This document shows positions 9,408 through 10,739 of a stretch of DNA of 64,000 bases, piece by piece. Source of the DNA: Candidatus Hodarchaeota archaeon (GTDB lineage: Archaea; Asgardarchaeota; Lokiarchaeia; Sigyniarchaeales; SOKP01); the NCBI GenBank assembly GCA_048886685.1, contig JBHLKM010000002.1, positions 167,532-231,531 on the forward strand, written 5' to 3'. Below the pieces are notes generated by a model. That model was given only the letters and a program-made list of their open reading frames with translations, was not told the DNA's origin and ran no database searches. Position 1 is the stretch's first letter. The number at the start of each line of letters is the position of its first letter. Position numbers and translations under genes: made by a program.

Positions 9408-10739
9408 CTAAAAGATATTTTCATCTAAAACTATAGTTTCAGTTCTATCAGGACCAATTGAGATCATGGCTATTTCTGTTTCTAATTCTTCTTTAATTGC
9501 TTGAATATAGACTTTCATTGTATCTGGTAATGCATCATAGCCTTTTAATGCGATTTCTAACCACTGATCTCTTTTGAGTTCTTCCCATCCCTCAAAGGTT
9601 CTATATATTGGTTTACACTTTTCAATTATTTCATGTTGAATCGGCCAGCTTTCAAGAATTTCACCGTCTAATTTGTAAGCAGTACACATTTTTATAGGGC
9701 TTATACCCTGTAAAGCATCTAAAAGAGTAATGACAATTTTATCTATTCCATTTATCATTATCCCATACTTAATATTAAAGAGATCAATCCATCCTATTCT
9801 ACGTGGTCTTCCTGTAACTGTCCCATATTCATGACCCTGCTCTCGAATTTTTTCAGCAGTGTTATTAAATAATTCTGTAGGAAACGTTCCAGCTCCTACT
9901 CTCGATGTATAAGCTTTTATAACTCCTAATATTTTTTTTATCTTTTTTGGGGGGATACCTGTACCTGCAGAAATTCCTAATGCATTCGAACTAGATGATG
10001 TACCAAAGGGGTAAAATCCATGATCAATACCTAAAAGGTTACCCTGAGCGCCTTCAAATAAAACTTTTTTACCTTCATCGATAGATTTATTTAAATAGTA
10101 AGCAGAATCAATTACATAATGTTTAAGTTTCTCTCCATATTTTTTATATTCTTGATATATTCTTTCAAAAGATTCATCCCAATTAGGATCATAGTTTTTT
10201 ATTTGTTTTTTTTTGATTTCAAAGAGCTTTTCTAGTTTTGGTTTTAGAAATTCAGGATGTATTAAATCAAATACTCGAATGCCCCAGCGTGCAACTTTAT
10301 CAGAATATGTAGGACCAATACCTCTTTTAGTTGTACCTGCGCTATACTTCCCTTTTGATTCTTCTTCTAAGCCATCTAAAACCCGATGGAATGGAAAGAT
10401 TACATGTGCAGTTGAACTTAGTTTCAAATTTATTTTTTTATCAAGTTTTTTTAAATTATCTATTTCTTCGAGTAATACCTTTGGATCAATAACACATCCA
10501 TTCGCTATAACACATTCTTTTTCTAATGGAGCTCCACTGGGGATGAGTTTGAATTTATATTTAATTCCATCAGCCTCAATTGTATGACCTGCATTATTTC
10601 CCCCGTTATATCTTACAACGATATCTGCTTTCTGTGCTAAATAATCAACAAATTTGCCTTTTCCCTCGTATAGGGCTGACATGCGATTTGCATGTTAAAC
10701 TCCCCACGAGAGACCTATTACGGCAATGTTATCACTCAT
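9408..10739 (-). CDS. purA: adenylosuccinate synthetase, predicted intron-split: join(10739..10700, 10669..9408), 433 aa after splicing
   Basis: Exon 1 ATG at 10739 encodes [13 protein letters not shown] plus one G; exon 2 starts AC GAG GGA AAA. Joined they give WGDEGKGK. Body motifs [45 protein letters not shown]. The ORF-track start at 10682 lies inside the intron. Confidence 0.95.
10670..10699 (-). other. putative 30-nt archaeal-type (BHB/BHL) intron in purA mRNA
   Basis: Sense sequence UUUAACAUGCAAAUCGCAUGUCAGCCCUAU with an in-frame UAA. Fold: exon helix UCUCUCG/CGAGGGA, central 4-bp helix GGGG/CCCU, bulges AG|U and AU|A, intron stem ACAUGC/GCAUGU. Removal restores the invariant Asp codon G|AC. 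Confidence 0.85.

Follow-up and report, generated by a model that had tools for sequence, protein, structure and literature searches.

The window, by which we mean the whole analysed stretch of 64,000 nucleotides, belongs to a 4.4-Mb genome (G000) that is 100% complete and whose family is represented in the collection by 133 species-level genomes. Among named purA loci, the closest come mostly from Promethearchaeota/Promethearchaeia MAGs (Loki_b31, Loki_b32 and others), and on this sequence affinity the genome is assigned to a Lokiarchaeia-type Asgard archaeon of the class Promethearchaeia (Lokiarchaeia).

On the minus strand, purA reads from 10739 through 13 residues, then V, then a TAA stop, and EGKGK resumes 30 nt on. 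The unspliced reading is thus ended after 14 codons by a TAA (10697-10695) inside an insert, as had been read in an earlier note on this DNA (the original prediction). All 1-44-nt deletions with a start between gene positions 30 and 49 were tried, and removal of 10699..10670 (30 nt) was the sole solution that restored WGDEGKGK without a stop, giving the 433-aa protein and the PurA N-terminus that had been proposed. A 33-nt deletion keeps the frame open, but the Gly is lost. Adenylosuccinate synthetases of solved structure match PurA of an intronless relative over its full length, and it is the D of WGDEGKGK whose codon is split. This residue, Asp13, is essential and 99% conserved (PMC12884076). 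Two full-length PurA homologues (P0105 and P0115) read WGDEAKGK, not WGDEGKGK. The locus contains the following features.

10700..10739, minus strand: purA exon 1, 40 nt (13 codons and the first base of the Asp codon), encoding the first beta strand and contributing GGGG to the central helix and AG to the 5′ bulge
10670..10699, minus strand: putative purA intron, 30 nt that separate the first base of the catalytic Asp codon from the second and include the in-frame TAA and the intron stem-loop, with CCCU for the central helix and AU for the 3′ bulge
9408..10669, minus strand: purA exon 2, the remainder of adenylosuccinate synthetase (PF00709) up to the stop codon
9408..10682, minus strand: 424-aa ORF with its ATG inside the intron, the form found in protein databases
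10662..10713, minus strand: exon-exon outer helix h, 7 bp (10713-10707 with 10668-10662), strong in the window copy only
10702..10705, minus strand: exon strand of the 4-bp central helix H, pairing with 10675-10672
10699..10701, minus strand: 5′ bulge AG^U, 3 nt, with a cut predicted from geometry between 10700 and 10699
10669..10671, minus strand: 3′ bulge or loop AU^A, facing U10706, with a cut predicted from geometry between 10670 and 10669
10676..10698, minus strand: intron helix h′ with a 5-nt loop and a stem of 10695-10690/10684-10679

Outside the gene, a short G+C-containing hairpin lies in the intergenic region at window 10915-10934, minus strand, ~180 nt upstream of the purA start.

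The exon helix, central helix and intron stem of the original prediction are present as it wrote them, and the ends of the frame-restoring deletion coincide with the cut sites predicted independently by bulge-helix-bulge (BHB) geometry. Two further pairs, U10698-G10676 and U10697-A10677, close the 5′ bulge, so that this side is a true 3-nt bulge, and the 3′ side of the window copy is a 1×3 internal loop. The junction is therefore not of the canonical hBHBh′ form, in which both bulges are exactly 3 nt and the outer helices stack directly; with its 5′ bulge and a covarying intron helix it has the relaxed form (HBh′ or hBH), for which one true 3-nt bulge suffices, provided that an outer helix closes it. 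The fold of the intron region is more stable than expected by chance (-28.4 kcal/mol, z -4.4, 0/200 shuffles). In ViennaRNA the cut-ready geometry has -19.8 kcal/mol versus -23.3 kcal/mol for the minimum-energy fold, a difference of 3.5 kcal/mol, and in the latter the bulge bases are partly paired.

The distribution of the insert was examined in 398 genomes of the phylum with a pattern permitting any insert of 10-40 nt at the G|AY junction of purA. It occurs in 28 genomes, the window's included, which fall in four genera of one family, and in none of the searched genomes outside that family. Elsewhere the motif is uninterrupted, in 87 members of the same family and, for the other families of the class, in 23 of 26 genomes; none of the 28 insert-bearing genomes has an intact GDEGKGK match, so no intact backup copy is seen. 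Seven further metagenome contigs carry the insert. With diverged inserts at this junction in 27 other genomes as well as in these 7 contigs, the insert cannot be an artefact of assembly. The inserts measure 30, 31 or 32 nt and thus cover all three frames, and in each of the 26 copies examined the unspliced reading meets a premature stop. Pattern matches in L034, L035, L041 and L054 turned out on inspection not to be purA inserts, those in G032 and G300 were judged on the matched text alone, and L360 and L368 are frameshifted by a single-base slip and an N gap rather than by introns. Two genomes of the same genus, G002 (97% complete) and G005 (90% complete), gave no purA match with this query.

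Alignment of the relatives' purA 5′ ends bears out the shared insertion site in the 28 genomes and the covariation of the intron stem. The insert sequences diverge, but across 25 aligned copies 98% of the central-helix cells are paired; G-U/G-C exchanges occur on the intron strand, and two copies have a mismatch in this helix. In the intron helix, all five bulge-adjacent pairs and both loop-closing pairs show double-sided changes; overall there are 8 such pairs, with 0/500 shuffles as high, although the insert-bearing genomes are related, so that counts are not independent, and the tested structure was derived from the same sequences. Overall pairing is 79% versus 34-52% in controls with partners slid by 1-3 columns, and RNAalifold recovers the same core unaided. 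The 7-bp exon-exon helix of the original prediction holds in the window copy but not as a family feature, being paired in 58% of cells across the family and weak in about half of the copies. The family motif is therefore relaxed HBh′, not canonical hBHBh′.

As in the cbf5-type intron, a 4-bp helix forms between exon 1 and the intron end, and both predicted cuts lie two bases 3′ of the helix strands. The first base of both bulges is an invariant A (25/25 copies for the 3′ bulge), and the third base of the 5′ bulge varies freely. The A of the 5′ bulge is the free third position of a Gly codon, which is GGA in 26/26 intron-bearing versus 29/84 intronless purA genes, the search pattern having allowed any base there.

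The host gene appears to be functional. The original prediction had named an intact purA elsewhere, with decay of this copy, as a refutation; no second purA is found in the 4.4-Mb genome, where tblastn and Pfam PF00709 each find one locus, and substitution rates show no pseudogene decay. Between the window and the nearest intron-bearing genomes, exon 2 has dN of 0.036-0.040 and dS of 0.64-0.65 (nearest: 0.036 versus 0.64), and its median dN/dS is 0.106 in intron-bearing pairs and 0.095 in intronless pairs. Exon 1 is also under purifying selection across the intron-bearing relatives, with a pooled pN of 0.14 versus a pS of 0.55. Exon 2 is open in 25/26 intron-bearing copies, the remaining one being cut by a contig end. 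Because the relatives show that the gene still works, purA mRNA is very probably spliced.

Similar inserts were found at a second site of purA. L038 (G195) has a 31-nt insert (1626-1656) directly after the His of NAGH in addition to its Asp insert, and L361 has a 34-nt insert (~391-424) directly after the same His and none at the Asp site. This His is His41, which we take to be the second catalytic residue of PurA. At both, GGUC pairs with GGCU and the bulge is AA^A, with the geometry seen at the Asp site. The site-2 pattern is loose, and these are two lineages among the matches listed. The purA transcript of L038 would be a two-intron mRNA.

Other genes were surveyed by comparing proteins from 2.4 of 3.3 Mb of the same-genus genome G005 with G000, blind to structure, and then applying a BHB filter that passes 9% of shifted controls. 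Eleven frame-breaking inserts of 25-40 nt were found in G000, of which 8 pass the filter: purA, as a control, and seven others of 29-37 nt. The original prediction had suggested a scan for further frame-restoring BHB motifs, and with seven more in G000 it had understated the case. The seven are listed first, followed by two near misses.

G000 C3:215413-215441: insert in uvrB
G000 C6:98861-98890: insert in a CCG/Fe-S oxidoreductase gene
G000 C40:3422-3451: insert in an AMP-binding ligase gene
G000 C4:207081-207110: insert in a gene for an 88-aa unknown protein
G000 C20:41175-41204: insert in a GH38 mannosidase gene
G000 C16:51416-51445: insert in a phosphofructokinase (PFK) gene
G000 C1:28143-28179: insert in a gene for a Toprim protein (probably DnaG)
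G000 C18:88180-88213: near miss in a CO dehydrogenase subunit gene
G000 C1:288833-288862: near miss in a thioredoxin gene

Targeted patterns add inserts in RNase HII and uL11 of G000. In the reverse comparison, 5/8 inserts of G005 pass the filter, with lengths of 28-30 nt, and one G005 insert lies in uL11 at a position different from that in G000. Most inserts sit in conserved motifs, places that the comparison method favours. The genome-wide counts are minima, because 2.4 of 3.3 Mb of G005 was compared and shared inserts are invisible to the comparison. By these predictions, the purA intron is one of about a dozen such inserts in G000. A 13-nt frame-breaking difference from G005 in a small ORF at window ~23311-23323 (C2:190842-190854), minus strand, is without BHB geometry and is probably not an intron.

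The genome encodes two EndA-family genes and one rtcB. For one EndA the best match is the alpha subunit of Aeropyrum pernix EndA (E 5e-34); the G000 protein retains the Tyr/His/Lys triad and has a crenarchaea-type CSL/L1 loop with a lysine aligned to K44. The second paralogue is without the catalytic His, as expected for a beta subunit. From its genes, the organism is predicted to have RtcB and an (alpha-beta)2 EndA with the broad-specificity CSL/L1 loop lysine, the equipment of a cbf5-type host. Asgard archaea have the L1-loop type of EndA, the one removing relaxed (HBh′) motifs (Kaneta et al., PMC5829648). A 2026 preprint on introns of Asgard archaea states that splicing has been shown for none of its tRNA inserts, and no Asgard EndA has been assayed (10.64898/2026.10.13.758758). 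ARAGORN on the whole of G000 called only 35 tRNA genes, with many odd intron calls, plus tRNA-Sec; several tRNAs are probably hidden by non-canonical introns.

We propose that purA is transcribed with its 30-nt intron, and that the pre-mRNA would fold into a relaxed BHB with an HBh′ core consisting of a perfect 5′ bulge, the 4-bp central helix, the intron stem and a loose 3′ bulge. The heterotetrameric tRNA-splicing endonuclease would then cut after the second base of each bulge, and RtcB would ligate the exons, creating the Asp13 codon from G and AC and thereby the 433-aa enzyme. Cutting, ligation and intron release are here modelled on established EndA chemistry. We hold it highly probable that EndA and RtcB act in this manner. 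For the relaxed EndA/RtcB-type intron in the Asp13 codon that the original prediction put forward, the comparative evidence is strong, and searches for RNA evidence in collections that are mostly DNA returned none: an exact pattern found no spliced or 30-nt form in metagenome contigs, and the contig and protein collections yielded neither a spliced transcript nor a circular intron nor a junction peptide. No full-length homologue was ≥99% identical to an intron-bearing exon 2, the best being 97.6%. A 433-aa protein in the 90% cluster of the window protein was considered as an mRNA copy and rejected, as its contig has genes on both strands; at ~88% nucleotide identity it is a genomic, intronless relative.

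Splicing at these ends by an unknown nuclease or by self-cleavage, rather than by EndA and RtcB, is very unlikely. The relaxed 3′ site would suit such a course, but both purA sites, and sites in other genes, obey the rule for EndA, a 4-bp helix with the cut following the second base of the bulge. The insert has no match in Rfam; group I and group II introns have a ribozyme core of >200 nt, for which 30 nt is far too short, and the purA inserts span 30-32 nt.

An equally slim chance is left to expression without splicing, either from the ATG at 10682 in the insert, yielding 424 aa, or by ribosome read-through or hopping. The 424-aa ORF does exist and is reported by gene callers, and truncated starts of this kind occur in 27/121 close homologues fetched. 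However, its product would be without the first strand, Gly12 and Asp13, the last being essential and 99% conserved (PMC12884076). An in-frame ATG or GTG is present in only 6/26 intron copies, and exon 1 is under purifying selection. The 424-aa ORF is probably a mis-call. As for hopping and read-through, 31- and 32-nt inserts also shift the frame. Translational bypassing of the T4 gene 60 type relies on matched take-off and landing codons that restore the protein, and does not fit purA: neither hop nor read-through can supply the Asp, because its codon, split 1+2, is absent from the unspliced RNA.

It is still less probable that purA is a pseudogene in lineages that salvage adenine, with the insert as a dead scar. 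The lack of any purA match in G002 (97% complete) and G005 (90%) would agree with it. This reading is largely refuted by dN/dS, the same as in intronless copies over a dS of 0.4-0.65, by an exon 2 that is open in all copies except the one ending at a contig edge, and by the conserved structure of the insert.

In the purA protein tree, intron state has to change at least 10 times to account for the 26 intron-bearing rows, and strong branches force 3 of these changes. Gains and losses look alike on this tree, and the pattern is compatible with an old gain followed by many losses, with repeated exchange, or with both. On the JGI contig L309, which is genomic and not a transcript, lies a gene for a 433-aa PurA that shares 95% identity with the window's protein and is without the insert at exactly G|AC. 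The two genes are 90-96% identical through exon 2 and 79% identical in exon 1 (L309:5067-5110 versus window 10700-10739), where L309 shares 95% identity with intronless genes that are more distant. Exon 1 of the window, in turn, is 98% identical to that of one intron-bearing genome, which is 82-94% identical elsewhere. Because exon 1 identities follow intron state against the rest of the gene, homologous recombination appears to move exon 1 and intron state as a unit; the comparison covers 42 bases and does not give the direction of exchange. Loss through reverse transcription of the gene's own mRNA is disfavoured, because L309 would then have kept a window-like exon 1.

Removal of the insert from DNA, as a tiny excisable element or by phase variation, or its origin as an assembly artefact, is as improbable as a pseudogene: the 95%-identical relative does lack it precisely, but the insert has no terminal or target repeats, BLAST against its own genome finds no second copy, donor or similar sequence, 28 independent assemblies carry it, and the exon 1 of that relative, 79% identical to the window's and 95% to other intronless genes, points to allele exchange, not excision.

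The patchy distribution and the swapping by recombination fit a near-neutral insert better than a switch. More tentatively, the spliced intron may be a near-neutral passenger, kept because its position tolerates nothing but exact removal, and homologous recombination with relatives may remove or restore it. Splicing of purA as a regulated control point for purine synthesis is doubtful, and is unsupported because three quarters of the family are without the intron.

The purA intron probably works like the crenarchaeal cbf5 intron and, by its sequence features, probably belongs with it. The cbf5 intron of Desulfurococcales and Sulfolobales (Watanabe 2002; Yokobori 2009, PMC2738675) also interrupts a catalytic Asp codon after the first base; it has 16-44 nt, compared with 30-32 nt in purA, often a relaxed BHB, a host with heterotetrameric EndA, and a patchy distribution with secondary losses. 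In purA, precise removal likewise restores the frame, and the empty site is found in 87 family members and in the 95%-identical relative. Unlike cbf5, which serves RNA modification, purA serves purine metabolism and is in a different phylum; its intron is much patchier (28 of ~115 scored family members, at least 10 state changes), it has a second intron site, and there are about a dozen such inserts per genome. Splicing of cbf5 has been shown experimentally, whereas that of purA is predicted.

Another mRNA processed by the tRNA-splicing endonuclease is HVO_1309 of Haloferax volcanii, whose 5′ UTR contains a BHB intron (PMC7714728); unlike that of purA, it lies outside coding sequence and its enzyme is the homodimeric euryarchaeal one. 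The HBh′ tRNA introns of TACK and Asgard archaea (PMC5829648; PMC11291895; 10.64898/2026.10.13.758758) share motif, size range and predicted enzyme with purA, but their host is tRNA, not mRNA; G000 itself has many intron-bearing tRNA calls. The Asgard papers (PMC11291895; 10.64898/2026.10.13.758758), searched by term, treat introns in tRNA genes only, and the preprint mentions neither mRNA nor cbf5.

The original prediction had also drawn a parallel to the HAC1/XBP1 (Ire1) intron, which is likewise short, non-spliceosomal and frame-breaking. Ire1 is a stress-regulated kinase-RNase unrelated to EndA that cuts at two stem-loops. Its system has no BHB motif, and purA shows no sign of regulation or shared ancestry; the purA cuts would lie in bulges of one helix, not each in the loop of its own stem-loop, and the CNG|CNG-like consensus of Ire1 sites is absent from the junctions. 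RtcB is the ligase for XBP1-type splicing in animals (PMC8718801). The parallel is thus an analogy only, the patchy distribution and recombination swapping fitting a near-neutral insert. Nor does the suggested bearing on a lineage close to eukaryotes hold: the site-1 insert is limited to one Promethearchaeia family of the 398 genomes searched and therefore says nothing about the eukaryotic ancestor. The purA intron by itself has no bearing on the origin of spliceosomal introns, and nothing supports a eukaryotic link.

By 2020, the mRNA cases of BHB reported were cbf5 and the Haloferax 5′ UTR intron (PMC7714728), and a 2009 paper mentions unconfirmed predictions in other genes (PMC2738675). The literature searched confirms splicing inside archaeal coding sequence for cbf5 only, and no report of Asgard mRNA introns was found in the open literature, subscription journals being mostly uncovered. 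Public annotations hold truncated PurA without the catalytic residue (27 of the 121 close homologues fetched), which leads to false gaps when the metabolism of these genomes is reconstructed.

If a core enzyme of an Asgard family, encoded by one gene copy, has an obligatory intron in its catalytic codon, and about a dozen companions occur per genome, mRNA splicing would be routine in at least one archaeal lineage. It is likely that one large Promethearchaeia family routinely splices protein-coding mRNAs with the tRNA-splicing machinery, with at least 10 introns of ~30 nt per genome in central genes, two in some genes, repeatedly gained at conserved motifs and exchanged by recombination. If true, this would be a proliferation of non-spliceosomal introns in an Asgard lineage. 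purA would then offer a tractable natural case of introns invading and persisting without a spliceosome, through sites that demand exact removal, a permissive endonuclease and loss by recombination.
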